Shown piece by piece: positions 3,410 through 45,573 of a stretch of 56,771 bases of DNA. The stretch lies in the NCBI GenBank assembly GCA_027623425.1, contig JAQBTH010000002.1:1-56771 (forward strand). The letters run 5' to 3'. Below the pieces are notes generated by a model. That model was not told the DNA's origin, did no database searches, and saw nothing but the letters and a program-made list of their open reading frames with translations. Numbering within the stretch: the first letter of the stretch is position 1; every line of letters starts with the position of its first letter. A program made the translations under genes and the position numbers. The DNA comes from a bacterium (lineage in GTDB: Bacteria; Margulisbacteria; Marinamargulisbacteria; UBA817; JAQBTH01).

Positions 3410-6241
3410 TTAGAGGGATATTTTAAGGAGTAATGGCGTGTTGTCACGAACGATGGTGGCCGGTATGGTATTACTGCCTTCAAGTTCATCTAAAATGGTG
3501 TCGTAATGGTTTAGGCTGATGATGGCGTTATCGTTTAATTCGGAAATAAAATCACCGGGTTTTAAACCCGCGCGGGCGGCAGGGCTATCTGGCTCTACCG
3601 ATGTTACGAGTACGGCATAATCGGTTTCGTCGGGAATGGTGTTAATGTCGGGTTCAGTAACAATCAGGCCAAGCGCGTCGGTGATTTGGGCATCAATTGG
3701 TAGGGCCATTGTGTCGGGCGAATCCGCCGGGTTTACGCTAATGGAAAGCGTTGTTTTTTGCCCACGTCGCACAGTAAGCTTGGTGGGTTTACCAATAGTG
3801 AGTTCTTCTATGGTTGTGTTGAATTGTGCGGGTGATGTGATTTCAGTGTTTCCAACTGCCAATATGATATCGCCGCGGCGTAATTTTGCCACATCAGCAG
3901 GGCTGTCTTTTAAGACATTGTTGAGCATTACGCCGTGTTGGCGTTTTAATTTGTGTTGGCGTTGCGCTGAAACTGGAACGGGCTTTGCTTGTACGCCTAT
4001 CCACCCACGTTTCACCACACCGTATTTTTCCAATGCACGCGCAACACGTAGGGCCGTATTTGCAGGTATAGCGGTGCTAAAGGGTGTTTTGGTCATATGG
4101 GGTGAACTGGCAATGCTTGTTATTCCGACCAATCGGCCATCCAGGTCTACTAGCGCCCCACCAGAATGACTACTTGGAACCAACGTGTTTGTGGCCAATA
4201 ATCCATGACGTTTTGTTGGGTTTGGTATGGCCGAAATAATTCCTGTTGCGATGGTGATACCGTGGTCTGGAGAGTGGCCAATGCCCATTACCCAGTCGCC
4301 GAGTCGAATTGTTTCGCTTTCTGGGGCAGGGGTAAGAAACGGATGGCTATTACCTACAATCTTTAGTACAGCAAGGTCACTTTGTGGGTCGACACCAATT
4401 CGTTTTGCTGGCACTGTACGGCCATTATATAAAACCACCTCGAGCTGTTCGCGTTCCCAAATATTGTTGTAAGACGTAATGATTGTGCCAGAGCTGGAGA
4501 TTATAACGCCTGATCCAAGGTGCTTGCTGGCTTCGAGCGGTTGGGCCGTGGCGGGAAGCTCGCCGAAATGTGGGTCTTTTGCTTTGGCTCCCGGAATTGC
4601 ACCAACGGTTTGTATGCCGACGATGGCCCGATTTGTGCTTCGATACACGTATCGAAATACCACTGAATAACCATTTAATTCCGCAAATTCTTTTGGGTAT
4701 CGGTGTTTTGTTTCTGCAACGCCCTTGGTGCTTGTTCCTATAATCAGAGCGGCGGTTAATGCCACTGTTATGATGGATTTAATGCTGATGCCATATTTTT
4801 CTGCTTTGGTATAAAACGTGGTGCGGGAAATGCCCAATGCTTCGGCGGCTTTTCTGATGTTTCCAGCGGTTACTTTTAAGGCGTGTCGCATTGCGGATTC
4901 TTCCACTTCTTCTAGGCTTGGAATATGATTGGATTGAGGTGTAATAGTGTCTTTTTGTTGGGTGGGCTCTGCAAGTAGTGGGGCGGCGTTTTGGCCAGGT
5001 AGGTAGGCTAAAAGAGTGGCGGTGATGGTTTTTCCACCCGCAATAATGGTCATGCGTTGCATGAGGTTTTCCAATTCTCGAATGTTGCCTTCCCAAGGTT
5101 GTTTTAGCAAGAAAACTTCTGCGTCTTGGGATAAATTGGCAGTGGGATGATTAAATTCTTTCGCGTACTTTTCAAGAAAAAACTGAGCCAATGGCACAAT
5201 ATCTTCGCTGCGTTCTCTTAATGGTGGAATGCTGATGGGGAACACATTTAAACGGTAATATAAGTCCAATCGAAACTGCTTGGCCTCAACAGCTTGTTTT
5301 AGATTTCGGTTTGTTGCCGCAATAATGCGCACATCAACTGGAATGCGTTTTCGCCCACCCACGCGTTCTATTTCTCGGTTTTGCAGTACGCGAAGTAATT
5401 TAACTTGTAAGTCTAGCGATAGCTCGCCAATTTCGTCTAAAAATAAAGTGCCGCCTTCGGCCTGTTCGAATTTTCCTGGTCGGGTTTCTGTTGCGCCCGT
5501 AAATGCGCCTTTTTCATGGCCGAATAATTCGGATTCGATTAATTCTTTAGGGATGGCTCCGCAGTTTAATGTAATAAATGGCTTTGGTTTACGGGTTGAA
5601 TTGTTGTGAATTAGATTTGCCAATACGTCTTTTCCTGTGCCACTTTCACCTTCTAATAGGATGGTGATGTCGTTGTCTAGAACGATTTGTATGGCTTTAA
5701 ATACAGGCACCATTGCCCGGCTATTCCCAATAAAATGGTTTCGTTCAATGTGTTGGGGTAGAGATGGCGTTTTTGATTTTTCAGGCATAATAGCCGCCTG
5801 CTCGTCGGAATAGAGTTCATAGGTTAATATGCCCAAAAAATCTAATAAATTACTTAGTTTACCCACGTCTTCATTTAACTCAAATTCATCGGATTTATAT
5901 TGGTTTTGTAGCGCTTTTACAATAGTGGATTTGAATGAAAAAATAAGTAGTGCGGTGTCTTTAGCCGATAAGCCATGTTGGCGGTGGTGTTTTCGTATTT
6001 CTTGCCACAGTGTGATGACTGGTTTTAGCGCTTGAGCATTTAAATTGGGTAAATTGGTGTTTTCAAATGTGGCTGACAATTTATCTAAAAAGAGTTGGGA
6101 ATGACTTGAAAATTCGCCGTCTGTGGTGAATAGAGCATCTTTGTAACGGGGGTTTTCTTCAACTTCTTTTAGCCATGCATCGGAAATTTCGGCATGGTGT
6201 TGGGTGAGAAAGCTATTTGCTTGAAGATTTTGATGTCCCAT
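3410..6241 (-). CDS. Fusion protein: N-terminal helical sensor-like domain, sigma-54 enhancer-binding AAA+ core, Fis-type HTH, one TM helix, HtrA/DegS-like trypsin-fold domain (His replaced by Asn), two PDZ domains
   Basis: One uninterrupted 943-codon ORF. Motifs: GESGTGKD (Walker A, aa 198-205), GAFTGA (aa 245-250), TLFLDEIGE (Walker B), AAEALGISRTTFYTKAEKYGI (HTH), IITVALTAALIIG (aa ~490-502). Then GSGVIISSSGTIITSYNNIW / DLAVLKI / SHSGGALVD (HtrA core) and two PDZ-like segments (RGDIILAVGN..., LKPGDFISELN...). Confidence 0.85.
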   Translation of the reverse strand: MGHQNLQANSFLTQHHAEISDAWLKEVEENPRYKDALFTTDGEFSSHSQLFLDKLSATFENTNLPNLNAQALKPVITLWQEIRKHHRQHGLSAKDTALLIFSFKSTIVKALQNQYKSDEFELNEDVGKLSNLLDFLGILTYELYSDEQAAIMPEKSKTPSLPQHIERNHFIGNSRAMVPVFKAIQIVLDNDITILLEGESGTGKDVLANLIHNNSTRKPKPFITLNCGAIPKELIESELFGHEKGAFTGATETRPGKFEQAEGGTLFLDEIGELSLDLQVKLLRVLQNREIERVGGRKRIPVDVRIIAATNRNLKQAVEAKQFRLDLYYRLNVFPISIPPLRERSEDIVPLAQFFLEKYAKEFNHPTANLSQDAEVFLLKQPWEGNIRELENLMQRMTIIAGGKTITATLLAYLPGQNAAPLLAEPTQQKDTITPQSNHIPSLEEVEESAMRHALKVTAGNIRKAAEALGISRTTFYTKAEKYGISIKSIITVALTAALIIGTSTKGVAETKHRYPKEFAELNGYSVVFRYVYRSTNRAIVGIQTVGAIPGAKAKDPHFGELPATAQPLEASKHLGSGVIISSSGTIITSYNNIWEREQLEVVLYNGRTVPAKRIGVDPQSDLAVLKIVGNSHPFLTPAPESETIRLGDWVMGIGHSPDHGITIATGIISAIPNPTKRHGLLATNTLVPSSHSGGALVDLDGRLVGITSIASSPHMTKTPFSTAIPANTALRVARALEKYGVVKRGWIGVQAKPVPVSAQRQHKLKRQHGVMLNNVLKDSPADVAKLRRGDIILAVGNTEITSPAQFNTTIEELTIGKPTKLTVRRGQKTTLSISVNPADSPDTMALPIDAQITDALGLIVTEPDINTIPDETDYAVLVTSVEPDSPAARAGLKPGDFISELNDNAIISLNHYDTILDELEGSNTIPATIVRDNTPLLLKISL

Positions 6242-13558: not shown

Positions 13559-14683
13559 TTATTCGGGGTCTAAGTCCATATCAATTTCAGAGCCTGGGCG
13601 GTTGTCCATATTCATTTCGTCATCGTCGGAATTAAAACGACTCTTTTTTGATGTTTTTGGTGGTGTTTGGCTTTTGGGTTTGGCCTTATCGTCGGTTTTT
13701 ATGTCTTGCTCAGATTTATTTTCCTCGGTACTAACTTCAACTGGGGATTCCGGTAACTTGTAGCTGGTGATTGCGGCAACTAATTCTTTTTTGGCCTTTT
13801 CATTCATCCACGTCCACTTTGCTTTTCTTACCATTTCTTCTGCTTCTGTTTTGTCAGTGTTATGGATGGTATCAACGATTTTAAGTAGCGTGGTTTCAAG
13901 CGTATTTTTAAACTCAAATTGAGGTGTTTTTAGTCTGAAATTGCTTACCGTATTAGGCGCTTGTTTGTAGGTAATGTTGTCGTAAAATTCTGGTGTGAAT
14001 AGATGTTTTAATGTTTTAACAGGAATACGATCTTTTAACGCGTATTCGATGCGAGTTAAGTCTGTTAAGACGAGTGTGGCCATGAAATTATCGTATGGGG
14101 TGATGGTTTCGAGGGAAATTAGGGTGTTGCCAGATACCTCTGTTTCATCGAGATAGACCAGTTGAAACTTGTCTTTATCCGTAAAGAACTGCACGAGATA
14201 CCCTGTTTTTTCGTGTTTTAGTTTAGATGCGCGGCCAGACCAAATCCACGCATTTCCTGAGGGGTCTTTTGCACGGTTTTCACGTAACGATAATAAGGAT
14301 TCTTTGAGGTTTGATGCGGTGATGGTGACGCTGTTTTTGTTAGAGGCGATGGATTTAAATGTAATATTTTCTGAGGGGTCTTTTTCTTCCTCAATATCCC
14401 CTTGGCCCCAACTCATAATTTCAGGGGCTTCACCATCTAATATGCCAGATACAGCGAAGTACATGGTGGTGTCTAAAATGGAAAACGACGGAAGCGTGGT
14501 GTTTGATGTTGAGGCTATATTTTTACTGCTTACCACGTTTACGACGGCTGTTACGGTAAAATCTTTGCGTTCTTTCGTGTCATTGGGGGCTACTTCTTGG
14601 GTTACTTTTCCACACGATATTACGACCGCGAGTAACGCGCAACAAAGCCCCACCCCTAAGGCATTTGATTTTAGAGAGTTCAT
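13559..14683 (-). CDS. Hypothetical lipoprotein (374 aa) with Lys/Asp-rich C-terminal tail
   Basis: Lipobox-like signal MNSLKSNALGVGLCCALLAVVISC-G. No recognised domain. Co-oriented and tightly spaced with ORF 14692-15753 and tgt. Confidence 0.7.
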   Translation of the reverse strand: MNSLKSNALGVGLCCALLAVVISCGKVTQEVAPNDTKERKDFTVTAVVNVVSSKNIASTSNTTLPSFSILDTTMYFAVSGILDGEAPEIMSWGQGDIEEEKDPSENITFKSIASNKNSVTITASNLKESLLSLRENRAKDPSGNAWIWSGRASKLKHEKTGYLVQFFTDKDKFQLVYLDETEVSGNTLISLETITPYDNFMATLVLTDLTRIEYALKDRIPVKTLKHLFTPEFYDNITYKQAPNTVSNFRLKTPQFEFKNTLETTLLKIVDTIHNTDKTEAEEMVRKAKWTWMNEKAKKELVAAITSYKLPESPVEVSTEENKSEQDIKTDDKAKPKSQTPPKTSKKSRFNSDDDEMNMDNRPGSEIDMDLDPE

Positions 14684-14691
14684 ACGCCGAA

Positions 14692-15753
14692 TTATACCAC
14701 AGAGCCGAATTCACTTGGTGGTGTTGGATTTACTTTATCTACAGCACCACTTTGTTCGGGAGCTTGACCATTATGTTGAGGCATAATGCTGGCTGCACCG
14801 CTATTGGCCGCTGAACCAACGCGACTTTGTAAATCGACATCGCCCTCAATTTTATTTTCAGTGGAGGGCTTAACTAAATTATTGAGTAGGTCTTGTAGTT
14901 GTTTTTCAGCGTCATGTTGCATGCTTCTTGCATTATCAATAGTGGTTTCTTGAATGCCTCCCACTTTACCTACAGAGTCTTTTGAGAGTGTGGATGAAAC
15001 TTGGCCATTATCGAAGGAGACTCCGGATATGCCACCTAGATTTCCTAGGCGTTCCAGTTGAAAGTTAAGCGCATCATCATTTGTTTTATGAGCGGAGTCA
15101 CCTGAATTACCCGTCATATCCGCATCGGTAGATTCAATGCCCATAACGCGATTCATGCTGCGTTGTAATAGTGCTTGAACCGCGTCTTCTGCAATTTCGC
15201 GGCGCATTGCTTTGTATGTTTCGCCTGCTTTTCGCATAAATTCATTATCCATAAGGCCGCCTTTTGCGACGTCAAATAATTCATTAATTTGGTCTGGATG
15301 CACTTCTTCAAACGGATTTTGCATATTGGGTTGTTGAATGCCCTTTGCGCCCGATACACCACTAACGGTATTTTCTGTTATCGCGCCTGACCCACTTATT
15401 GCCTCGCCTGGTTTGATGGCGCCACCCATTGAACCGGCACTGCCACCAAAACCTGCTTTTGCAGGGTCTTTTAACAAATGTTCAAGTAAGCCAGTTTCCT
15501 TAAGGAATTTTAGTTTTTTCTGGATTTTTTTGATTTCATTTTTTAATTCTGGATCCTGAATCATGTCTCCAGCTTTGCCTAGTAACTTACCTAGCGTATC
15601 AATTTCGTGGGGCTGTATGCCATCGCCAATCATGTTTTGAATGCGCGCTAAAAGTGACATTAAAACATCTAATTCGCCTTTGGGCATGCCGCCTTGTTTG
15701 CCTGCGGTGGCAATTTGGCTGGTCAACGTCATTATTAAGCTTTCTAAACGCAT
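14692..15753 (-). CDS. Hypothetical Gly/Ser/Asn-rich helical protein (353 aa)
   Basis: Start set at ATG 15753 because it is preceded by AGGAG with 7-nt spacing; the tracked upstream ATG at 15783 has no SD. No TM or signal peptide and no recognised domain. Confidence 0.7.
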   Translation of the reverse strand: MRLESLIMTLTSQIATAGKQGGMPKGELDVLMSLLARIQNMIGDGIQPHEIDTLGKLLGKAGDMIQDPELKNEIKKIQKKLKFLKETGLLEHLLKDPAKAGFGGSAGSMGGAIKPGEAISGSGAITENTVSGVSGAKGIQQPNMQNPFEEVHPDQINELFDVAKGGLMDNEFMRKAGETYKAMRREIAEDAVQALLQRSMNRVMGIESTDADMTGNSGDSAHKTNDDALNFQLERLGNLGGISGVSFDNGQVSSTLSKDSVGKVGGIQETTIDNARSMQHDAEKQLQDLLNNLVKPSTENKIEGDVDLQSRVGSAANSGAASIMPQHNGQAPEQSGAVDKVNPTPPSEFGSVV

Positions 15754-15785
15754 GATAATTCTCCTAAATGCAGATTCTATCATTA

Positions 15786-20522: not shown

Positions 20523-20607
20523 TGGTGCGCGCGGAGGGAATCGAACCCCCACGCCTTACGGCACTAGATCCTAAGTCTAGCGCGTCTACCAATTCCGCCA
20601 CGCGCGC
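20523..20607 (-). tRNA. tRNA-Leu (anticodon UAG), long variable arm, CCA encoded
   Basis: Manual fold of the minus strand: GCGCGCG-TG-GCGG-AATTGGTAG-ACGC-G-CTAGA-CTTAGGA-TCTAG-TGCCGTAAGGCGT-GGGGG-TTCGATT-CCCTC-CGCGCGC-A-CCA. Confidence 0.92.
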
Positions 20608-20671: not shown

Positions 20672-20808
20672 TTTAGTAGAAGGAGATGAAGACATGGCAA
20701 CGATGTAAAAAATACTACTTTGGGTATTCCGAGGAATCCCTCAATGTCTTCAAGAGCAATAATGCCTCATATGAAATGGCGATACTATCCACCAAGGTGT
20801 GTATTTAT

Positions 20809-20832
20809 TAAAACTCAACCATATGGTTGATG
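20809..20832. repeat. 24-nt repeat copy 1 containing perfect 16-bp palindrome TCAACCATATGGTTGA
   Basis: TAAAACTCAACCATATGGTTGATG, identical to 20904-20927. Confidence 0.95.
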
Positions 20833-20903
20833 GTGTTTGCTATCAAACGATAGGTGTATGTAGTGACAGGTAAATTGGGGTGTAATTTATCTTGTGTTTG
20901 ACC

Positions 20904-20927
20904 TAAAACTCAACCATATGGTTGATG
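20904..20927. repeat. 24-nt repeat copy 2 containing perfect 16-bp palindrome TCAACCATATGGTTGA
   Basis: TAAAACTCAACCATATGGTTGATG, 95 bp from copy 1 and 9 nt past the stop codon of ORF 20936-21679. Confidence 0.95.
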
Positions 20928-20935
20928 TGATAAAT

Positions 20936-21679
20936 CTATTGCGCCAAGCGCGCTTGTATCGCGCATGATGTAAAATAGCGGCTTAATTTTTTTTTGCTAT
21001 CTTCAAGCAATAATTCTGGTTGTTTTATAGTCATTAACACCGTTGTTATATCACGTTTTACGTGGCATTTTGGTAGAAACTCTAGTAATATAGCGCATTG
21101 GCCAGGCGTTAGTTTAGAGGACATCTCTAGTAAAATGGCAGCATATTGCCCTTCCTGAATCTCATATAGGAGAGGGCACTTCTCTTGGCATGTTTTTACC
21201 CAAAATAATGCGTCTTTCATGTTTTTTTTGGCGAGCGCAAGAGTGTCTTCTCCCAGAAGATTTGGGTTTTCTTGTATTAAATCAGGTATATTCTCTAATG
21301 CTATTTTTGCTAATGGTAAATTTATTTGTGCTTCTTCTAGTATTTCTACCAAGCCACCTAGTGCGTTTGGGGTGTGACTTAAATAGGTTTTTACTGCGTC
21401 TTGATTCAAAATGGTCATGACTGTGTTTCTTTCAACCGGCATTAAGAAACGTGATAATAGGTTGTATGCCAATAGAAATTGTGGCGAACTGGTTTGATGG
21501 GGAAAGATGTTTGTTAACAGCCTAGACTCATCGTTTATGGGAATATCATGTACGGCGCTCACGGCGTATTGTGGAGGCACGTTTACTGGTGATGCAGCAC
21601 GAGCTGTTAGTCTGTTTCTGCCGTCTTGCCATGACACATAGCAAGGGGGAGCCGTACTTGTTTGTCTTATATTTTCCAT
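20936..21679 (-). CDS. Hypothetical helical protein (247 aa)
   Basis: ORF only, looks AT-richer than the backbone by eye. No signal peptide or TM. Contains an A9 tract (20987-20995) coding KKK. Confidence 0.6.
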   Translation of the reverse strand: MENIRQTSTAPPCYVSWQDGRNRLTARAASPVNVPPQYAVSAVHDIPINDESRLLTNIFPHQTSSPQFLLAYNLLSRFLMPVERNTVMTILNQDAVKTYLSHTPNALGGLVEILEEAQINLPLAKIALENIPDLIQENPNLLGEDTLALAKKNMKDALFWVKTCQEKCPLLYEIQEGQYAAILLEMSSKLTPGQCAILLEFLPKCHVKRDITTVLMTIKQPELLLEDSKKKLSRYFTSCAIQARLAQ

Positions 21680-21814: not shown

Positions 21815-22987
21815 ATGGCCAGCGTTGCATTGCGTTTAGTTCGGAGTGGTACACGGCGGGTAGTTCCTGCTGTTGCGGGCTCAATCCAAAGAAGTTTTTC
21901 TTCTTCAATCAACGCGGGGACTCAGGTGCTATCCACACGGCCTCAGGTTGTAGTGGGTTTAGGTGAATTGGGGGGTCTTTTTGCCCGTGAGGCTAGTGCA
22001 ACAATGGTGGGGGCCCTCAAAAGAGAATCCACTCCTAATGGCGTAACTGTAACACGTTTTAATTATGATGCGACGGCGCCAGATCATGCTGAACAATTAC
22101 TTGAAACCGTGTTTACTCGCCATCCTGATGGTGCCGATATCATATATGCCATTGGTGCGTGCTCTGGTGATGCAGAGGGAAACCCGGATCTTGCGCATCA
22201 AGTGAACGTATTAGCCCCGCTTCAGCTTATGGCTGCTACGGCAGGAACTGGTGTGCGGACGGTGTTTTTTTCATCTATGGCGGCTCGAGAGGGTTTGGGT
22301 GCAATTGTTGGTAACGAACCCGCAAATGCTGTTCGTTTGTACGGTAGCCAAAAAGCAGAGCTTGAATCGGGTGTTCGGTTTCAGCATCGCAAAGGAAATC
22401 GTAATGTTACTGCACTTGGGGTGCCTGGAATGTTGCCCGATGTGACCCTATTTGAAGGTGACGTGCCTAAAATAGGTGGCGGTGGTTCTACGGATCCCAT
22501 GCCATTATATATTCAAGCTGCAATGTTGAATTTATTTGCCCATTCGAACGGTCAGCCAATACCTGTTCCGACGTTGGTTTTACCGCTTTTATCTGATTCA
22601 GAAACCGCTTTTACTACCCATAGAGCGTTTCGCGTGGGTATGCAGTGCCTACTTAGTAAAAGTGGGCCGTTTGAAACCCCTGTTGTGGGTGTGCCTGGGG
22701 CTGCCATAAGTTTGGAAATGGCGCAATTTGTATTGCAATCATCTGGTGTTCGAGGGGGCGTGCTACCAGTGGTTATTGGCCGTCCAGATATTCGAAATGA
22801 TTTTGTTGCGTTATGGCCAACCTCTCAGTCTGGGGATTCTGTTGGTAAAGCATGTTTTGGTAGTAATTCAGTTTTTGATTCGATTTTAAGTTGTGCGAAG
22901 GGGTTTTTCAGGGTACCGTATGCGGCTAATTTAGCTGCATTTAATGCGACCCTGGCCCGCATTTGGCCAGAGGGAGTTCCCAAATAA
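21815..22987 (+). CDS. Extended short-chain dehydrogenase/epimerase-fold protein, L-threonine 3-dehydrogenase-like, with 43-aa basic N-terminal extension
   Basis: Strong SD (AGAGGAG). VVVGLGELGG (GxGxxG), YGSQK (YxxxK), GGGGSTDPMPLYIQAA and a WP...D...K tail, colinear with motifs I recall from animal/bacterial TDH (GLGQLG, YGxSK, GGGTTDYAVQIF). Confidence 0.55.
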   Translation: MASVALRLVRSGTRRVVPAVAGSIQRSFSSSINAGTQVLSTRPQVVVGLGELGGLFAREASATMVGALKRESTPNGVTVTRFNYDATAPDHAEQLLETVFTRHPDGADIIYAIGACSGDAEGNPDLAHQVNVLAPLQLMAATAGTGVRTVFFSSMAAREGLGAIVGNEPANAVRLYGSQKAELESGVRFQHRKGNRNVTALGVPGMLPDVTLFEGDVPKIGGGGSTDPMPLYIQAAMLNLFAHSNGQPIPVPTLVLPLLSDSETAFTTHRAFRVGMQCLLSKSGPFETPVVGVPGAAISLEMAQFVLQSSGVRGGVLPVVIGRPDIRNDFVALWPTSQSGDSVGKACFGSNSVFDSILSCAKGFFRVPYAANLAAFNATLARIWPEGVPK

Positions 22988-23027
22988 GTGGGTGTTTGTT
23001 TTTGTGCCTGCGCGTTATACTGGTGCC

Positions 23028-23807
23028 ATGAATAAACGACACCTTATATCACTGTTTGTTTTGGCGATGGCTCTTTTTGGTTCAACATCACTTGTTTTTG
23101 CATCAGAGTCATCTACTCACCCCGATGGTTTGTTTTTTACCGGGGCAATTGGTGGTGCGTTTAATGCGCCCACTAATGTGCAGTTTCGCCAAAAAGGTGA
23201 AGATGATGTAAGCGTATTTGCCAATTATTCTAATAAATCATTTGAAGATTATCCTTATTGGACCATGCGGTTTGAAAATTGGAATGCGAATAACGCGTTA
23301 GAATTTGAATTAATTCATCATAAAATTTATTTAGAAAATACCCCCGATGAAGTGGCTTATTTTAATGTGAGTGATGGGTATAATATGTTTATGCTAAACC
23401 GCGCTAGGCGAATTGGGCCGCGTATTTGGCGTGTGGGTGGCGGTGTTGTGATTGGGCATGCCGAAAGCAAGGTGCGTGGCCAAAAATTAGATTCCAGTGA
23501 GGGGCTTGGGGATGCGGGATTTTTTGTGGGTGGGCCTGCGGTTCAAGCCGGTGTTGAGTGGCGCCGTTTTACTACAGAAACGTTGTTTTTTAGTTTGGAA
23601 CAAAAATTAACGGCCGCTTATACCGAGTTTCCCATAAACGATGGTGTTGTAAGCGGGTTTAATTTTGCGTGGCATATTAATCTTAGGTGGGGCTCTAAAA
23701 AACCTGGCACTGGCGCGTCTTTGAAAGATCATGTGGTATTTTGGTCGCCGTTGGCAATGCCGTTTACCTTAGATGCGGTTTTTCCTAGGTATATTGATAA
23801 ACAGTAA
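23028..23807 (+). CDS. Putative outer-membrane beta-barrel protein (259 aa)
   Basis: Signal peptide MNKRHLISLFVLAMALFGSTSLVFA-S. Alternating aromatic/hydrophobic strands (FNFAWHINLRWG, TLFFSLEQKLTAAY). Start placed at ATG 23028. Confidence 0.6.
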   Translation: MNKRHLISLFVLAMALFGSTSLVFASESSTHPDGLFFTGAIGGAFNAPTNVQFRQKGEDDVSVFANYSNKSFEDYPYWTMRFENWNANNALEFELIHHKIYLENTPDEVAYFNVSDGYNMFMLNRARRIGPRIWRVGGGVVIGHAESKVRGQKLDSSEGLGDAGFFVGGPAVQAGVEWRRFTTETLFFSLEQKLTAAYTEFPINDGVVSGFNFAWHINLRWGSKKPGTGASLKDHVVFWSPLAMPFTLDAVFPRYIDKQ

Positions 23808-23960: not shown

Positions 23961-23988
23961 TAAAGTTTTGCGTGCGGGCTACCGATAA
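23961..23988 (+). promoter_or_regulatory. Sigma-28 (FliA/SigD-type) promoter candidate for the 24058-28327 cassette
   Basis: TAAAGTTT (exact -35 consensus) - 12 nt - ACCGATAA (7/8 of GCCGATAA), about 70 nt upstream of the ATG at 24058, which has a GGAGG SD. Confidence 0.65.
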
Positions 23989-24057
23989 TGCCAACAGAAT
24001 GACTTGGGAACAAAACCGAGTCGGGAACTGTTTAACAGTTTATTGGAGGTATTTATT

Positions 24058-25803
24058 ATGGCAGATGTAGGTGGTGCCGTAGGTGGTGCAAAAAATTTCC
24101 GTTCAGTTAAGGGCGATGTGTCAGATTCGAATAGGCAAAATACTAACTTAGCGCGTTCAGCGTGTCTTGCTGCTTTATTAGTTAAAGGTGGTAAAACGAC
24201 AGCGATGGGTGCCGCTGATAGGGTAAAAGTGGCTACTATGTTGTCTGGTTTTTCTCATCAAAAAGAACTCGTAAAAAGTGAGTATGCTCAGCTTACAAGA
24301 GATGTTAAAGCATCAATTAAAGGCGAATCTGATGTCAGTCCAAATGTAGAACGATTTCAATCCCAATTGAGTTTAGCAGTAAAGGCAATGGGTAAGGCTG
24401 TGAGTAAAATGCAGACTACTGAAGCTGTTAAGGATACAACTTATAATAAATTATTAGGGGCACAATTTGCGCGATTGGATGCCATTCAGGGATTGTTAGA
24501 GGCCAAACAGGATGTTGGAATAGCACATATTCAATTTGTGCATGACTTGGCACACAGCTCACCATCGCCTAGTGTTACTAAAGAATTAATTCAGTATGCT
24601 AACTTACTATTTCAAGAGATTGGAACAACGGCACTTAGTAAAGATTTAGGATTAAACCCAGAAGGCATTCAAGATGCTATTTCTGAGAATAGGTTTCCTA
24701 AGATTCAAGTGAATAGAGATGTACTTGATATAGTTCCATACTCGTATGAGGTATTTAAACCTACGGTCAACGCTCTTAAAGGTGGGCCACAATTAGTTGG
24801 AAAAGTAAGTTTGGAAATGTTTACTGAAATTGCATCAGCGAATTTTAACGTTAACCTTGAACAGGTAGGTGCTTTGAAGGATATGATTACTTTTGTTTCC
24901 GATTCTATCTTATTTTTGGATCAGGCATCGCAACTTGAAATGGGTGATTCAGATGCTAGAGAGATTGAAGAACTTCGAGGATTGTTTGTGGGTCAAATTT
25001 CATTTTTATCCGAAATTATTGTGAAAGTGGCAGATCACCTTATCGCATTTCATGATTCAGTTGCTGCGAATGACATGTTGCAAGTAGCGGATTTAATAGA
25101 AGTTGTTTTAGGTTGTATGACGCGTTCAGGTGACCCATCGCAGGATGCAAACTTGAAGACTCTTTATCATAGCTATGATGCGATTGCTACGCACTTTTAT
25201 CGGACTGAAGTGGGAATGGCTCAGCTGGCGTCATTTCAGCAACCGTTAGATGTGTTTACTGCTACTGCACGTGCGCAAGTTAGTTTGGTTTTGGAGGGAG
25301 AGTATGTATTTGAGTTGCATAACCCTATGGCTGTTATACGAGAAAATGCACCCGGAGCAGCAGTAAAGACTGATTCTGAGGTGGTTCCAAATAGGACGAT
25401 GCGCTCGGAATTACAGGAGGCTAAGAGGGGGCTTCAAAATGTTAGTCTAAGCTTGGTGCCTCTTTCTATGTTTGTTGATTTAAAAAATGCTGCACATGCT
25501 ATTTTGGGCGATTGTAGTACTCATGTGGATCGCAAAGGAGCTGTGGCTGATGGGGGTAGCCATCTCTCTGAGGATGTTCAATTTACTTCTGAGATGCAAC
25601 CACAATTGGATCGTTTTAAAGCTGATTTAAAACTTATGAGTCAACGCTATCCTGCACAATATGAGGTTTTGTGTAAATTATCTGATGTTTGTCGTGATGT
25701 AGGCGCCGTTTCGGCCCCACTACCCTTTAAAGGAGGGGTGTCGCAAAGCGCAACGTTGAATATGAGGGGTATCGCATCAACCTCACTGGGGGAACTGCGG
25801 TAA
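24058..25803 (+). CDS. Hypothetical large helical protein, paralogue A (581 aa)
   Basis: GGAGG SD 8 nt upstream. Gly-rich N-terminus MADVGGAVGGAK. Colinear shared motifs with ORF 26342-28327 (MAD..GG, ERFQ, Y.TEVG). Confidence 0.8.
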   Translation: MADVGGAVGGAKNFRSVKGDVSDSNRQNTNLARSACLAALLVKGGKTTAMGAADRVKVATMLSGFSHQKELVKSEYAQLTRDVKASIKGESDVSPNVERFQSQLSLAVKAMGKAVSKMQTTEAVKDTTYNKLLGAQFARLDAIQGLLEAKQDVGIAHIQFVHDLAHSSPSPSVTKELIQYANLLFQEIGTTALSKDLGLNPEGIQDAISENRFPKIQVNRDVLDIVPYSYEVFKPTVNALKGGPQLVGKVSLEMFTEIASANFNVNLEQVGALKDMITFVSDSILFLDQASQLEMGDSDAREIEELRGLFVGQISFLSEIIVKVADHLIAFHDSVAANDMLQVADLIEVVLGCMTRSGDPSQDANLKTLYHSYDAIATHFYRTEVGMAQLASFQQPLDVFTATARAQVSLVLEGEYVFELHNPMAVIRENAPGAAVKTDSEVVPNRTMRSELQEAKRGLQNVSLSLVPLSMFVDLKNAAHAILGDCSTHVDRKGAVADGGSHLSEDVQFTSEMQPQLDRFKADLKLMSQRYPAQYEVLCKLSDVCRDVGAVSAPLPFKGGVSQSATLNMRGIASTSLGELR

Positions 25804-25973
25804 TGCCAAGAATGGTTCAAGGGAAGAGAAAAGATCACCCTCTCGTTGAGCTACGAGCGGCCGATAAAACTCCGTTACCTGGGAACAAAACTCCTGGCAG
25901 TATTGTTGTGGGTGATATGGCTAATATAGTACTGGCAATGGCTGTTCATGGTTATCCGAAAGCTGCAGTCTAA
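25803..25973 (+). CDS. Small ORF (56 aa), start overlaps the upstream stop (TAATG)
   Basis: Not in the ORF track because it is under 60 aa. Translation: MPRMVQGKRKDHPLVELRAADKTPLPGNKTPGSIVVGDMANIVLAMAVHGYPKAAV. Fills an otherwise non-coding 170-nt gap. Confidence 0.4.
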   Translation: MPRMVQGKRKDHPLVELRAADKTPLPGNKTPGSIVVGDMANIVLAMAVHGYPKAAV

Positions 25974-25996
25974 ATCAAATGGAAAGGATTAACAAT

Positions 25997-26329
25997 ATGA
26001 CGATTAAAGAACAGTTTCAGCAGGTAGTGAGTGCGCCCGATTCATCGGTGTTAATTACGAATCATCGGGATACCAATCGCCGTGATTATCGGCATTATTA
26101 TTTACGGGTTACCATGGATGGCATGCAGCTTAAGGAAGAATCAATGACCTTGCGCCGCGATTATACCTATTCGTTTACTGATGATTCCCTTGAAATGGAT
26201 GGTATTAAAAAAGGGCAAGATTTTGTAGATGAGTTTTATGACAAGCTAGCCAAGATTGCCAAAGATGTGGAAGCAAACCAAGCGTTTGTTTTTGAACATA
26301 AACCAGAGCAATCTGAGACAGATAAATAG
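25997..26329 (+). CDS. Small acidic hypothetical protein (110 aa)
   Basis: Start chosen at ATG 25997 (GGAAAGGA about 8 nt upstream) rather than 25979. D/E-rich C-terminal half. Confidence 0.65.
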   Translation: MTIKEQFQQVVSAPDSSVLITNHRDTNRRDYRHYYLRVTMDGMQLKEESMTLRRDYTYSFTDDSLEMDGIKKGQDFVDEFYDKLAKIAKDVEANQAFVFEHKPEQSETDK

Positions 26330-26341
26330 GAGGAAATTAAA

Positions 26342-28327
26342 ATGGCAGATGCATTAGGTGGGCTACAAGGACAAGGTGTTATTGCAGGAATGCGTCAAAA
26401 GGCTGTTGATTCTCGGGATGCGGCATTGCAGGCCTTAGAAAATCGATTTGCAACTGAAGACTTGCGTGGAGCGGAGCAAATGAAGGGGTTTTCCGCAAGC
26501 GCTGTTGCTGTGTTCTTAACGGGAATGGGTGGTGGTGATAAGGGCGCCTTTAACTCGGCAATGTTGAATTATTCTCAGGCTGGTGGAAAAGGGCCAATGT
26601 ATGAGGTTAAATCTAGAATGGGGCAAAAATCAGCGGTTAAAACTGACGCGTTTACAACGCCATTGGAGAGATTTCAAAAAGCGGTTGGCGATGTGCTTTC
26701 CAATATCGAAAAATTGAGAGGAAAACCGGTAGATGTTAAAGGACACGCTCGTTTAAAAGCGGATGTTATTGCTTTGGCGGACTTGCTAAGTGATGCGTTT
26801 TCTAAAGGTATTTCTTTGCGATCGGAATCGCTGGACAATTGTATGGCGGTTTTTGATTCTGTATTAACGGGTGGAGACATGCCATTGGGGCAGTTGAAAG
26901 ATGATCTGGGTGATTTTGTTCAAAACTCCCAAGATATGGTTGTTCTTCATCAGTGCGGGCTTGTTCCGTTTTTGGATAAAACAGAGTTAACGGCTGGAGA
27001 ATTTAAACCGTTAATTAGGTTATTGACTCAGCATACTGAACGTTTGGCTCATTTAGGGAATGCTTCTGTTTTGGATGGTTTAAAAGAGGCGGTTAGTAAC
27101 GTTTTTATGGAAAAAATTATGCCTTTATTAACAACTCTGGATTATCTTACTCCAGGTTCTGAGTCTAATGGCATATTAATGGCATTTTGTCAGGGTAATG
27201 GTGACTTTTTGGGGGTGGATACCGCTACAAAACTGGGGTTTCTGGATTTGGTAGTTGAAAATGCGTGTTGTTCGCCTATCGCCGATGATTTAGTTGTTGC
27301 ACGGAATTTACTTTTCGAGGTTGTGCAACATGCGTCAGTTGGCGACATGCGTTCAGGTGAGCCTCCTTTAGGGCAGCAGTTTAAAGACATGATGGATGCT
27401 CTTGGTGATGCGTGGTATGGCACCGAGGTAGGAACGATGGCTGTTAACGCGTTGTTTGAAGGGATGGATGGCAAGCTGGGAGTAGAGAGCGGCCAAATTA
27501 CGGGTTTAACGAAGTTGGTAGGATCAGCGCAAAAACGTGCAGATGAGGCAAAGGGAGGGTCTGTTACAGATGATTTACACCCTGAACAATATTTGCGTTT
27601 ATCAAAAACTGAGGGCGCCTACTCAGCTAGGGGTAAAGGGGTTGCGGAAGCGACCCGAGACCGCTTTCGTGAGTCCTTTCCGTTTCCTATTGTGCCGTAC
27701 CGAGCAGTTGCGCTACTTGCAGATATCGCAAAAGGCGGATTAATGGTGTCAGAAAACAGTGGTGGAGTGTCGGTTCAGACGGATCGTTTTGATCGATTAC
27801 CTAAAGAAGGGCGGTTGACGTATCTTCCTGACCAAGAAGTGCCGAGCTTCACATTTAAAGGTGAGCCCGTTAAACGAGATGTTGTATGTGTTGATGGAAA
27901 AGAAGGGGCGCCCGCTTTGAGTGAAAATGCATATGATTTAATGGAAACTAAATTACCAGGTGCGTTTAAGAATGAGGCGAGATTAGAGGCTTTTAAACGG
28001 GTTTCAGCAGCGTTTGGTGATATTGCAAGAGCGGGTTCAGCAGTGCCTAGAAAAGTAGTTTCCACAAATCATTTCTACACGATGCCGGCCATGCAAGGGG
28101 TGTTGCGAACGCTATTGCTTTCCGTAGGCGAAAGTTTAGCTGCTCCCGGGTATGAACCTGGTACAGACCGATTAACATTTGCAGATAAGTGTGCAGGATT
28201 AGATATTGATGCATCTAGTGATCCAATGGCCGTGATAACGTATTCTAGAAGTCCTGTAAGTCGTGTTGATATGTTATCTATGTATCAACTGATGGCATGG
28301 GCACCAAGTTCAGAGACTATGGCCTAG
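26342..28327 (+). CDS. Hypothetical large helical protein, paralogue B (661 aa)
   Basis: AGGAGG SD. N-terminus MADALGGLQGQG. Shares ERFQ and AWYGTEVG motifs in the same order as paralogue A. Confidence 0.8.
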   Translation: MADALGGLQGQGVIAGMRQKAVDSRDAALQALENRFATEDLRGAEQMKGFSASAVAVFLTGMGGGDKGAFNSAMLNYSQAGGKGPMYEVKSRMGQKSAVKTDAFTTPLERFQKAVGDVLSNIEKLRGKPVDVKGHARLKADVIALADLLSDAFSKGISLRSESLDNCMAVFDSVLTGGDMPLGQLKDDLGDFVQNSQDMVVLHQCGLVPFLDKTELTAGEFKPLIRLLTQHTERLAHLGNASVLDGLKEAVSNVFMEKIMPLLTTLDYLTPGSESNGILMAFCQGNGDFLGVDTATKLGFLDLVVENACCSPIADDLVVARNLLFEVVQHASVGDMRSGEPPLGQQFKDMMDALGDAWYGTEVGTMAVNALFEGMDGKLGVESGQITGLTKLVGSAQKRADEAKGGSVTDDLHPEQYLRLSKTEGAYSARGKGVAEATRDRFRESFPFPIVPYRAVALLADIAKGGLMVSENSGGVSVQTDRFDRLPKEGRLTYLPDQEVPSFTFKGEPVKRDVVCVDGKEGAPALSENAYDLMETKLPGAFKNEARLEAFKRVSAAFGDIARAGSAVPRKVVSTNHFYTMPAMQGVLRTLLLSVGESLAAPGYEPGTDRLTFADKCAGLDIDASSDPMAVITYSRSPVSRVDMLSMYQLMAWAPSSETMA

Positions 28328-29820
28328 ATCTGTTTGTCTCTCATGTGCGGAAAGGCAATGACATCGCGAATAGAAGGTTGGTCTGTAAGTAGCATGACCA
28401 CACGGTCAATACCGATCCCAAGCCCGCCCGTAGGTGGCATGCCATAGCTTAATGCGGTCACAAAATCTTCATCTGTCATATGGGTTTCATCGAAGCCGGC
28501 TTCACGGGCTTTTGTCTGGTCTTCGAACCGGGCTTTTTGGTCGATAGGGTCGTTTAACTCGCTAAATGCGTTCGCGATTTCCATCGTGTTAATAATCAGC
28601 TCAAATCGCTCCACATACCGTGGGTCATCGGCTTTGCGCTTTGCCAGTGGCGACGTTTCCCACGGATGATCCATAATAAAGGTGGGCTGAATGAGTTTGT
28701 TTTCTACGCATTTATCATAAATTAAATTGATCAATTCGCCGCGGTGGTATTGCTCAGGAATATCACAGCCTAATTCTTTGGCGCGTTTGGCAAGCCCTGC
28801 TTCATCAAGGTTAATGTCGGTGTCTGCGTATTCCTTTAATGCGTCTTTCATGGTGAGGCGACGAAATGGTGGTGCAAAATCTAATTCAGTGCCTTGATAG
28901 GTAATTTTAGTGCTGCCTGTATGGGCTTTTACCAGTTCGCTTAGTAATGTTTCGGTTAATGCCATAATGCCGTGGTAATCAGTGTAGGCCTGGTAAAGTT
29001 CCAAAAGGGTGTATTCAGGGTTGTGTTTGTAGCTTACCCCTTCGTTCCTAAACACGCGCCCAATCTCAAAAATGCGTTCAAATCCGCCCACCATGAGGCG
29101 TTTCAATGGCAATTCCAGGGATATTCTCATGTATAGTTTTTGGTCTAGGGTGTTGTGATGGGTTTCAAATGGGCTCGCCGATGCGCCACCATAAATGGTT
29201 TGTAACACGGGCGTTTCAACTTCCATAAAATTATCTTTATGTAGGTAGTCGCGAAAAAAATGTATAATTTTGGCCCGGTCTTGGAACACGTGACGCACTT
29301 CTGGGTTTGCAATTAAATCCACATAGCGTTGGCGATAGCGTGTTTCTTTGTCTTGTAGGCCATGAAATTTTTCTGGTAGTGAATGTAGTGACTTTGTAAG
29401 AAGGGTAAATTTGGCCAGGCGTATGGAAAGCTCTCCGCGCTTACTAACAAAGGGTTTTCCTTCAATGCCAATGATGTCGCCCACATCTAAATGTATTAGA
29501 TCGTGGTAGACTTCGTCGCCCAATTCATCGATATTGGCATAGTATTGAACGGCGGCATTTTCATCGGCAATATTACCAAAAGAGGCTTTTCCATGACCGC
29601 GTTTGGCCATTAATCGGCCGGCTAAAATTACCGTGTCCTCTGATTTTTCGCCACTTTCTAAGTGCGCGTATTTTTCACATATCTCTTTAATGGAATGGGA
29701 TCGGTCAAATTTATATTTAAATGCGTCTTCGCCTTTTTCACGATAGTGCGCTAATTTTTTAAGACGAACTTCCGATTCACTTAAACCATCGTATTGCGTT
29801 TGTTCTGTTGTCTGGCTCAT
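28324..29820 (-). CDS. lysS: Lysyl-tRNA synthetase, class II
   Basis: OB-fold N-terminal domain (AGRLMAKRGHGKASF), class II motifs (FRNEG, GGLGIGIDRVVMLL). Confidence 0.96.
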   Translation of the reverse strand: MSQTTEQTQYDGLSESEVRLKKLAHYREKGEDAFKYKFDRSHSIKEICEKYAHLESGEKSEDTVILAGRLMAKRGHGKASFGNIADENAAVQYYANIDELGDEVYHDLIHLDVGDIIGIEGKPFVSKRGELSIRLAKFTLLTKSLHSLPEKFHGLQDKETRYRQRYVDLIANPEVRHVFQDRAKIIHFFRDYLHKDNFMEVETPVLQTIYGGASASPFETHHNTLDQKLYMRISLELPLKRLMVGGFERIFEIGRVFRNEGVSYKHNPEYTLLELYQAYTDYHGIMALTETLLSELVKAHTGSTKITYQGTELDFAPPFRRLTMKDALKEYADTDINLDEAGLAKRAKELGCDIPEQYHRGELINLIYDKCVENKLIQPTFIMDHPWETSPLAKRKADDPRYVERFELIINTMEIANAFSELNDPIDQKARFEDQTKAREAGFDETHMTDEDFVTALSYGMPPTGGLGIGIDRVVMLLTDQPSIRDVIAFPHMRDKQI

Positions 29821-32207: not shown

Positions 32208-32978
32208 TTGAATCCTACAAAAAAGAAAGCATCGCCTAAGCAGGCAACACAGTCGACTGATAAATCAGCGCCTACTCGAAATCAATTGGTTGAAGATCAC
32301 CTTCACTTGGTAAAGTATGTGGTAAATCGGATGGCAGTGAGTTTACCCCCAGGAATGGGGCGTGATGACCTTTTAAGTATTGGTTGCTGGGGTTTGATTG
32401 ATTCTGCTGAGAAATTTGATACATCAAAAGGTGTTCTTTTTAAAACGTATGCGATCACTCGCATTCGCGGTGCTATTTTAGATGAATTACGCCGTCATAG
32501 TTTGGGCGGGCAAACATTATGCCGAAAAGCCAGAGCCTTGGAAAAGGCGGTGCGATTGGTAGAAAGTCGCTACGAAGGTAAAAAGGCGCCTGATTCAGAA
32601 GTGGCGAAGGAATTGGAGATTACCATAGAGAAATTACGTCATTTATACACTGAAGTGGCGCATTCCTTTTTAGTGTCTTTGGATGAATATACGTATAGCG
32701 ATGATGATTCTGAATCGTATGTGGATGGTTTAAAAGACGAAAAAATGCCAGAGCCTGCAGAGGCAATGGAAGCGTTGGAATTAAAAGAAACCATTATGAC
32801 TCATATCGATTCGATTCCACAGCAAGAAAAATTAGTGCTGACGTTGTATTATTACGAAGAATTGACCTTTAAAGAAATTGGCCGTGTTTTAAATGTGAGC
32901 GAGTCTCGTGTGTCGCAGATCCATACCAAAGCGATTGTTCGCATGCGGGGACGTTTAAAGCATTCTGTGACTTATTAG
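32208..32978 (+). CDS. fliA: RNA polymerase sigma factor, sigma-28 (FliA/WhiG) family
   Basis: Region 2 LLSIGCWGLIDSAEKFDTSKGVLFKTYAITRIRGAILDELRR; region 4.2 HTH LTFKEIGRVLNVSESRVSQIHTKAI; 256 aa with no region 1. TTG start directly after the secF stop. Confidence 0.85.
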   Translation: MNPTKKKASPKQATQSTDKSAPTRNQLVEDHLHLVKYVVNRMAVSLPPGMGRDDLLSIGCWGLIDSAEKFDTSKGVLFKTYAITRIRGAILDELRRHSLGGQTLCRKARALEKAVRLVESRYEGKKAPDSEVAKELEITIEKLRHLYTEVAHSFLVSLDEYTYSDDDSESYVDGLKDEKMPEPAEAMEALELKETIMTHIDSIPQQEKLVLTLYYYEELTFKEIGRVLNVSESRVSQIHTKAIVRMRGRLKHSVTY

Positions 32979-33031: not shown

Positions 33032-33856
33032 TTGGAGGCAACTTTGAGCACTAGGCACATTATTTTTAGATCTGTTTTTGGCCTTGCTTTGGTGATGGCC
33101 ACTTTTAGTGTTGCCTATGCCCATGACATTCAATTACGCAGTGATGTGGTGAATGGTCGTTTGGTGCCGCAGATCGAGATTAATGGTAAAAAAGTTGTGC
33201 GTATTCAAGACAAGGGGCCAAAGGGGCGTTTTGAATCGAATTTTGACCGCGCAGAACAAATCTATTTAAACCTTGTGGAGTTGGAAGAAAAAGGCCAGGA
33301 AATTGGGCACATTCGCGTACGTCGTATTAATCGTGAGTATACGGCATATGTGGGTCGTAACCGTATATTTACTATTACAAAAGGTGATATATTGGCGAAT
33401 GACTCAACATCAGAGTATCAGTTAGCAAGTTTGTGGGTACAAAATATTCGAGATGCTGTTGCTGTTGTTGGTACCGATTCAGATGGTGGTGTGGATATGC
33501 CGTTGGCAGCTGACGCCCATGAAAAGGAAGTAAAGAAAGACCAACAAGAACGGATGTTCCCGTTGGTTTTTGTATTGAATTCTTTGGCTAAGAGTGGCGC
33601 GATGATGCTGATTATTCAACTGTTGTTTTTGGGCGTGTTTCAGGTGTTGGTCGCCTATGGGGTTGTGCATTATGTGATGAAGCGTCAGATGGCGAGGGAT
33701 CGGGTGATTCAAGGCCGATTAGATAAAATACAGCATGCAGTGGGTCAATTAAAACAGCAAGCAAATACAACTCAGAACGATGTAAAATTGATGAAAAAGA
33801 AAACCGAGCGCAAAAGTGGGGCCTCACCGTTGGATATGTTACGCACAAGCGGGTAG
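33032..33856 (+). CDS. Hypothetical exported/membrane protein (274 aa)
   Basis: Signal-like N-terminus FRSVFGLALVMATFSVAYA, soluble domain, C-terminal TM pair (GAMMLIIQLLFLGVFQVLVAYGVVHYV) and a basic coiled tail. An alternative TTG start at 33044 lies behind a GGAGG. Confidence 0.65.
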   Translation: MEATLSTRHIIFRSVFGLALVMATFSVAYAHDIQLRSDVVNGRLVPQIEINGKKVVRIQDKGPKGRFESNFDRAEQIYLNLVELEEKGQEIGHIRVRRINREYTAYVGRNRIFTITKGDILANDSTSEYQLASLWVQNIRDAVAVVGTDSDGGVDMPLAADAHEKEVKKDQQERMFPLVFVLNSLAKSGAMMLIIQLLFLGVFQVLVAYGVVHYVMKRQMARDRVIQGRLDKIQHAVGQLKQQANTTQNDVKLMKKKTERKSGASPLDMLRTSG

Positions 33857-44772: not shown

Positions 44773-45210
44773 CTAGATGTGCTTAGCCATTCTGACGCTT
44801 GTGCCTTTACCCTTTGTTGAGTTAAAGTCAGCCACATCCATTAAGCTTTTAATAAATGTCATACCAAGTCCTAGGCTGGAGCGCTCATCGCCCATTGGTT
44901 CGCCTTCTTTGTTCGCCTTGATGGCTTCCACTTCAGACATGTCGAATCCTTTACCATGGTCTTCCACAATGATTTCCAGTTTCTCTTTATATAGGTTGCA
45001 GGTAATGTAAACGCGACCTTGGCTCTTGTCTTCGTACGCATACTGAACGGAGTTTGTGCAGGCTTCGGATACTGCAATTTTAATATCTTCAATTTCTTCG
45101 ATTGAGAAATTCATTCGTGTGGCGATTCCAGAGACGGCGAGGCGCACAACGCCTACAAAGTCGGATGCACAGGGTATTTCAAGGTTAATGGTTTCTACTG
45201 TAGGGGTCAT
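44773..45210 (-). CDS. Anti-sigma factor serine kinase (RsbW/SpoIIAB family, HATPase_c)
   Basis: N-box EACTNSVQYAY, G1 DHGKGF, G2 GLGMTF; 145 aa. Confidence 0.85.
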   Translation of the reverse strand: MTPTVETINLEIPCASDFVGVVRLAVSGIATRMNFSIEEIEDIKIAVSEACTNSVQYAYEDKSQGRVYITCNLYKEKLEIIVEDHGKGFDMSEVEAIKANKEGEPMGDERSSLGLGMTFIKSLMDVADFNSTKGKGTSVRMAKHI

Positions 45211-45225
45211 TTTGACTATCCTTTA

Positions 45226-45573
45226 TTAGGTGTTCTTTACGGCTTCAGCCTCAATGTCATATATATTAACATTTTTTTGGTTAAGACCGGAAACCTCAAA
45301 AATTTTCACGAGTTGGGGCTTGGTGCAAACCACGTTTAGCCGACCGCCTTGTGTTGATAGGTTTTCAGCACTAAGGGCAATGGCGCCTAAACCCGTGCTA
45401 TCAATGTAATGAACGTTTTCTAGGTTTAATACAACCGCTTTAGGATGGTTTGCCATCGCAGAGCCAATTGATTCCGTAAGGCGAGGTGATGTGTAAATGT
45501 CGATCTCACCATCTACGCTGATAACGGGTACGGAATTTGTTTCACTTGTTGTAATTTTGAAGTCTAAAGGCAT
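45226..45573 (-). CDS. Anti-sigma factor antagonist (STAS domain, RsbV/SpoIIAA family)
   Basis: 115 aa; VHYIDSTGLGAI with the conserved phosphorylatable Ser. AGAGGA SD. Confidence 0.85.
   Translation of the reverse strand: MPLDFKITTSETNSVPVISVDGEIDIYTSPRLTESIGSAMANHPKAVVLNLENVHYIDSTGLGAIALSAENLSTQGGRLNVVCTKPQLVKIFEVSGLNQKNVNIYDIEAEAVKNT

Follow-up and report, generated by a model that had tools for sequence, protein, structure and literature searches.

A candidate sigma-28-controlled locus in the Marinamargulisbacteria, with one conserved small gene among changing neighbors

What kind of locus places two large proteins without known relatives around two small ones, behind what looks like a promoter of the sigma-28 (FliA) type? 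This question is raised by contig JAQBTH010000002.1 of assembly GCA_027623425.1, from a bacterium of the Marinamargulisbacteria. We analyzed positions 1 to 56,771 of this contig, which we call the window. Four open reading frames (ORFs), which we call A, S1, S2, and B, are tightly packed on its plus strand at 24058-28327 (Table 1). An earlier reading of this DNA, made from the sequence only, proposed that A and B are paralogs and that the arrangement recalls modules of export substrates and chaperones from flagellar or injectisome-type systems. We lean slightly towards a lineage-restricted operon that would be transcribed by the FliA/WhiG-family sigma factor encoded 4 kb downstream, and that would combine a constant part (the promoter and S2) with a variable slot.

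Table 1. The locus and the neighboring features on which its interpretation draws (positions in the window)
Feature	Positions	Strand	Description	Basis
Upstream neighbor	23025-23807	+	signal-peptide protein	maximum Kyte-Doolittle 19-residue mean of 2.23, at the N-terminus
Sigma-28 (FliA)-type promoter	23961-23988	+	TAAAGTTT-N12-ACCGATAA	70 nt before A's ATG
Gene A	24058-25803	+	581 aa, Gly-rich N-terminus, orphan, this species only	ORF and ribosome-binding site
S1	25803-25973	+	56 aa, basic, pI 10	ATG overlapping A's TAA as TAATG
S2	25997-26329	+	110 aa, acidic, pI 5.0	conserved core gene of the locus
Gene B	26342-28327	+	661 aa, orphan	ORF and ribosome-binding site
FliA/WhiG-family sigma gene	32208-32978	+		TIGR02479, 237 bits (cut-off 189.6)

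We found homologs of S2 in two other species: P0003 (80% identity), on the Logan contig L025, and P0004 (68% identity), on L024, a 40-kb contig from ENA. Both are at the same position as S2 and behind the same promoter. Synteny between L024 and the window extends over ~20 kb, which includes a radical-SAM/HemN-type gene, tgt, hldD, tRNA-Leu, lysS, secDF, fliA, mnmE, yidC, and a CDP-alcohol phosphatidyltransferase gene, and LysS of L024 is 83% identical to the window's. On both contigs, the order is a gene for a 287-aa signal-peptide protein, a sigma-28-type site, a short ORF, and S2. The short ORF, which sits in what we call the slot, encodes 69 aa in L025 and 133 aa in L024 (where it is probably frameshifted by nanopore errors). 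The two slot ORFs show no similarity to each other, to A, or to B, and a comparison with the N-terminal parts of A and B gave no match (z ≤ 2).

The spacers in these relatives, at ~440 and ~540 bp, are too short to hold A, and tblastn with A, S1, and B gave no match in L024 or L025. In L024, lysS comes right after S2, which leaves no B there; L025 ends before the position that B would occupy. Because the promoter and S2 are both kept while A and S1 (and, in L024, B) are missing from the relatives, the conserved unit appears to consist of the sigma-28-type promoter and S2, surrounded by a slot in which genes turn over rapidly. A, S1, and B appear to be additions in the window's lineage.

The promoter itself was compared to a sigma-28 consensus with TAAA(GTTT) at -35, GCCGATAA at -10, and the classical spacer of N11. 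The site upstream of A matches 15 of the 16 classical consensus positions and is kept in the two related species, so the sequence-only reading was correct, as far as sequence goes, to place a sigma-28-type promoter there. It is the sole intergenic site of this type in the window, and the sites at this locus are the only ones in ~100 kb of sequence from the lineage. In L025, the promoter is TAAAGTTT-N11-ACCGATAA, which has canonical spacing. L024 has TAAA-N15-CCGATAA before the slot ORF and a second sigma-28-type site, TAAAGCCT-N12-ACCGATAA, 45 nt before S2. The TACCGATAA block does not vary among these four upstream regions, which come from three species. The sigma factor that recognizes these sites is presumably the product of the FliA/WhiG-family gene downstream of B, and L024 has a syntenic copy that is 85% identical.

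These observations suggest how the locus might work. In this species, the slot would hold A and B, which are large, soluble, and probably α-helical orphans, along with the 56-aa S1. A and B would have been gained in this lineage, and the four genes would be co-expressed when sigma-28 is active. S2 would have a function that is independent of A and B, and might act as a general adaptor or as a regulator in the sigma-28 program, while A and B would be accessory cargo. Exposed or exported proteins would be our best guess for A and B, and a tentative one.

The coding evidence for the locus is straightforward. Each ORF has a ribosome-binding site upstream: GGAGG at 24045-24049 for A, GGGGGA at 25788-25793 for S1, GGAAAGGA at 25981-25988 for S2, and AGGAGG at 26328-26333 for B. 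These sites, the gene order A/S1/S2/B, and the TAATG coupling between A and S1 are all as first described. S2 has an alternative in-frame ATG at 25979, which is not kept in its most distant relative. The stop codon of B overlaps the stop codon of the convergent lysS (28324-29820). All of the ORFs are intact in three independent assemblies of this species (the window and the ENA scaffolds scaffold_730 and scaffold_45610), and the sole indel that we found is an 18-bp deletion in A in one strain, which is in frame. In A and B, the GC content of the codon positions falls in the order GC1>GC2>GC3, as it does in housekeeping genes. S1, a putative gene, was also predicted in two further assemblies of this species. 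Neither A nor B has internal repeats, and we found no mobile-element-like repeats bounding the cassette and no Rfam elements in or near it.

Do these proteins belong to any known family? None of the four had a usable match in Pfam (E ≤ 1), NCBIfam (E ≤ 0.1), PHROGs, or PADLOC. We took two marginal hits, of A to a PHROG connector (E = 0.0095) and of S2 to BilQ (E = 0.052), to be noise. A, B, and the profile of S2 had only chance-level matches among the sequences in the PDB. These searches assigned neither A nor B to a housekeeping family, and the suggestion that both lie outside the known families, flagellar or otherwise, holds up. For B, a word-index search and an exhaustive HMMER search of 1.84 billion representative proteins found a single relative, a fragment of 382 aa that belongs to this species too. 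The word-index search with A found no homolog. Further scans of GTDB genomes (with B), JGI metagenomes (with A and with the S2 alignment), and IMG/VR (with S2) gave no relatives, and A had none among plasmids and phages. The nearest relatives of the window's LysS, at 60% identity, are in metagenome-assembled genomes of the Marinamargulisbacteria type, and these genomes, anchored on LysS, show nothing comparable next to lysS. Orphan genes of this sort are frequent in metagenome-assembled genomes and in uncultured lineages.

We also asked if A and B are related to each other. The motifs that had suggested so are present and collinear: both proteins start with MAD and a Gly-rich stretch, and both have ERFQ near residue 100 and Y.TEVG near residue 370. 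Pairwise alignment had been named as the test of this claim, and at the protein level the similarity is not significant. BLASTP gave E = 0.008 for A versus B, hhalign gave E = 0.023 with a probability of 2%, and phmmer gave 1.6 bits, which is below the scores of several shuffled sequences. When we used BLASTP against 42 other proteins from the window as a control, B and GyrA gave E = 0.004, B and the product of the ORF at 14692-15783 gave 0.01, and A and MnmE gave 0.03. We dropped z-scores of 5-6 from shuffling as a sign of kinship, as A and MnmE, an unrelated pair, gave z = 6.0; these z-scores reflect helical composition rather than homology. The protein comparisons thus do not demonstrate paralogy. 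On the other side, B is the best match of A among 43 window proteins, and the aligned block is collinear (residues 313-394 of A and 297-373 of B). Also, in the DNA around the start codons (-17 to +18), A and B are alike at 25 of 35 bases, which ranks first among 946 pairs of genes in the window (mean 11.2, standard deviation 2.8, second best 21). Because their start regions are the most alike of the 946 pairs, an old duplication of A and B is plausible, and we would put it somewhat ahead of its negation. Such a duplication would include the ribosome-binding site and the first codons.

The sequence-only reading had also described A and B as large helical proteins without transmembrane segments. 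They are large, and they lack transmembrane segments: their highest Kyte-Doolittle means over 19 residues (1.33 in A, 1.21 in B) are below the transmembrane range, and controls with membrane segments or signal peptides have values of 2.2-2.4. The helical part of the description depends on a low-confidence model of A. This AF2 model, from a single sequence, is all-helical with a pLDDT of 43, and only residues 230-380 are above 50. Foldseek matched it to designed helical repeats with TM-scores (normalized by query or target) of at most ~0.3, which we treated as meaningless. For S2, an AF2 model from a three-sequence alignment has moderate confidence (pLDDT 75.7, pTM 0.66) and shows an α/β protein, in which a short helix leads into five antiparallel strands, followed by a long helix and one more strand. 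In Foldseek searches with this model, the best hit in the PDB had E = 0.44 (TM-score below 0.4) and the best hit in BFVD had E = 0.11. The top 50 PDB matches included no chaperone, and among the hits listed there was no type III or flagellar chaperone, no FliW, and no anti-sigma structure.

How does the idea of an export module fare? According to this idea, a flagellar or injectisome-type (type III) system would export A and B as its substrates, S2 (and perhaps S1) would be their export chaperone, and expression would be late and dependent on sigma-28. The locus has the promoter and the sigma gene that this requires, S2 is small and acidic, and A and B lack Sec signals as well as transmembrane segments. 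Fast evolution of A and B (discussed below) would suit extracellular proteins. Also, A, B, and the slot ORF of L025, which are otherwise unrelated, each have 5 glycines in the first 30 residues, although we noticed this post hoc. However, S2 stays 68-80% identical while its neighbors are swapped or lost. This weakens the case for S2 as a chaperone, because a dedicated chaperone would be expected to co-vary with its substrate, and S2 does not. As mentioned above, the model of S2 matches no type III or flagellar chaperone in the PDB, and S2 has no match to FliS, FliT, FlgN, or CesT in Pfam at E ≤ 1. Nor did we find, in A or B, any translocator domain or any of the terminal domains of the flagellar axial proteins flagellin, FlgK, FlgL, and FliD (Flagellin_N/C, Flg_bb_rod/Flg_bbr_C, or FliD_N/C), at the Pfam and NCBIfam thresholds given above. 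There is no flagellar or injectisome gene in ~67 kb (the 57-kb window and 10 kb beyond its left end), and our search of the literature on flagella in Margulisbacteria found nothing usable. Overall, we consider an export module of this kind unlikely. S2 as a chaperone would survive only if S2 recognizes a generic feature of its partners.

If the operon with a constant promoter and S2 is the better description, then the role of S2 is the next question. One answer is that S2 controls sigma-28 by feedback (as an anti-sigma factor or a co-factor, like FlgM) and is transcribed by the very sigma factor that it controls; A and B would then be unrelated passengers in the operon. Of the genes behind the promoter, S2 alone is kept in all three species. 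L024 has a further sigma-28-type site for S2 itself, and S2 is within ~6 kb of the sigma gene on both long contigs. Genes for anti-sigma factors are commonly controlled by the cognate sigma factor, as with flgM, rsbW, and spoIIAB. But neither S1 nor S2 has a match to FlgM in Pfam (E ≤ 1), and the model of S2 is a folded β-sheet protein, unlike FlgM, which is disordered or helical. The RsbW-type kinase and STAS antagonist at 44773-45573 are alternative regulators, and contact between S2 and the sigma factor is purely hypothetical. So, we consider this role for S2 improbable, a little more so than that of an export chaperone.

Another answer would make S2 the founder of a new family of sigma-28-controlled partners. 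It could be an adaptor for Gly-rich, disordered N-termini of interchangeable cargo, or a new type of anti-sigma-28 factor. We offer this as speculation with low odds. If S2 is indeed an adaptor, then the slot would act as a hotspot in which new exported proteins, A and B among them, arise and are tried out in a little-known lineage.

Between the window and L023, a contig from another strain of the same species, A has 6 nonsynonymous and 1 synonymous codon changes, and B has 8 and 2 over the whole gene (7 and 2 in the C-terminal part). Together, this is 14 nonsynonymous and 3 synonymous changes, versus 6 and 19 in lysS for the same pair of strains. The changes in A and B exclude omega ≤ 0.3 (p ~0.003), and they would fit relaxed or diversifying selection. 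The GC content at third codon positions is 0.30 in A, which is the lowest of the 46 ORFs, and 0.36 in B, which is in the lowest quartile alongside other uncharacterized genes. That A and B are recent acquisitions, neutral or decaying, with no role in the sigma-28 program and an incidental position, would agree with this composition, with a ratio of changes that fits omega = 1, and with the absence of homologs, including from the closest relatives, but we doubt it strongly, as both ORFs (581 and 661 codons) are uninterrupted in all of the assemblies, the sole indel is in frame, both genes have strong ribosome-binding sites and are tightly packed with S1 and S2, and their GC1>GC2>GC3 pattern is that of housekeeping genes.

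We also noticed that the 5' part of lysS (29467-29641) has 31 substitutions in 175 bp relative to L023, while the remainder of lysS is identical. This is probably a recombination tract.

Returning to the operon with a constant promoter and S2 and a variable slot, several considerations weigh against it. The conserved core comes from a small sample, as only three species carry S2. The spacer of the window's promoter is N12, one base above the classical N11. Both the use of the promoter and the co-transcription of the four genes are predictions from DNA sequence. A was searched less reliably than B because the word-index search missed A's own cluster representative. With omega near 1 and strain divergence of just 1-2%, A and B could be functionless recent acquisitions that are drifting. 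Finally, no homology or fold match points to a role for S2.

Some neighboring genes could bear on the sigma factor. The gene directly upstream of the promoter (Table 1) has this position in all three species, and its product has no match in Pfam or NCBIfam; we do not claim that it belongs to the operon. Directly after the FliA/WhiG gene is a gene (33032-33856, plus strand) for a 274-aa membrane protein, with an N-terminal hydrophobic segment and a transmembrane segment near residue 190. It was not matched to a family, it is found at the same position in L024 (66-77% identity), and it could be a partner for the sigma factor. On the minus strand, an RsbW/SpoIIAB-like kinase (44773-45210; HATPase_c_2, E = 2e-24) adjoins a STAS anti-anti-sigma protein (45226-45573; E = 2e-20). 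We found no sigma gene of the SigB or SigF type in the window. The only alternative sigma factor that we saw is FliA/WhiG, 12 kb from this pair, and it could be the target of the pair.

We noticed other features of the window as well. The minus strand at 3410-6241 encodes a 943-aa protein with RsbRD_N, a sigma-54 activator AAA+ domain, HTH_8, a trypsin-like protease, and two PDZ domains. This is an unusual architecture, an enhancer-binding protein fused to an HtrA-like protease, and it is also a single gene in an independent ENA assembly. Two adjacent genes on the minus strand (13559-14683 and 14692-15783) encode proteins of 374 and 363 aa with no family match and with 52-66% identity to their counterparts in L024. 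The first of these proteins has a lipoprotein-like N-terminus. Just upstream of the gene at 14692-15783 is a ACCGATAA box, with no TAAA element at the proper distance. Lastly, a 35-nt direct repeat occurs twice, at 20798-20832 and 20893-20927, and each copy contains the perfect palindrome TCAACCATATGGTTGA. The repeats have tRNA-Leu(tag) (20523-20607) on one side and, on the other, a minus-strand gene (20936-21679) and a plus-strand gene (21815-22987) that are both absent from this position in L024. This looks like a small insertion beside a tRNA gene.

What does this locus offer? It is a clean case of a conserved promoter and small gene with large genes that are gained or lost between close species. 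It yields four uncharacterized proteins, three of which are restricted to one species, and it touches no long-standing question. If the locus does depend on sigma-28, then it would give a handle on the FliA/WhiG regulon in a poorly known, uncultured lineage.

Among known systems, the class-3 flagellar operons come to mind first. These are transcribed by sigma-28/FliA (flgMN, fliDST, and fliC in Salmonella and E. coli) or by sigma-D (in Bacillus subtilis). The locus resembles them in the TAAAGTTT-N11-GCCGATAA promoter architecture, in having a cognate FliA/WhiG gene in the genome, and in having large helical proteins beside small acidic ones. Unlike the class-3 operons, it has no match to Flagellin_N/C, Flg_bb_rod, FliD, FliS, FliT, FlgN, FlgM, FlaG, or FliW (Pfam, E ≤ 1), there is no flagellar gene nearby, and the large genes are missing from close relatives.

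The type III pairs SycE-YopE and CesT-Tir also consist of a small acidic protein beside fast-evolving large proteins that lack Sec signals and transmembrane segments. More broadly, S2 has the size and charge of type III and flagellar chaperones (CesT/SycE, FliS, FliT, and FlgN are acidic and have ~100-150 aa). In contrast to these pairs, the model of S2 does not have the class I chaperone fold, S2 is kept while its would-be substrates are replaced, and no injectisome genes were seen in the ~67 kb. A and B also differ from the SctE/SctB translocators of type III systems, as they lack central hydrophobic transmembrane helices (their Kyte-Doolittle maxima are given above).

Another possible parallel is FliW and CsrA, which are encoded beside flagellin. 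Here too, in a sigma-28 context, a basic protein (S1) adjoins an acidic, β-rich one (S2). But neither has a match to CsrA or FliW in Pfam (E ≤ 1), S2 has no fold match to FliW, and S1 is absent from the relatives. By eye only, residues 33-52 of S1 (25899-25959; GSIVVGDMANIVLAMAVHG), which include SIVVGD, recall the N-terminal strands of CsrA (ESIVIGD..I.VL). S1 lacks the RNA-binding part of CsrA (GxxAP...REE), and the likeness is probably a coincidence.

The late genes of Chlamydia form a sigma-28 regulon in a bacterium without flagella, with partner switching of the RsbW/RsbV type. The targets of sigma-28 in Chlamydia have no sequence relationship to A, S1, S2, or B. Nevertheless, the two have in common a FliA-type sigma factor, an RsbW-like kinase, a STAS protein, and driven genes that have no flagellar identity. 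What is new at this locus is the cargo, which consists of new protein families without relatives, rather than the kind of regulation.

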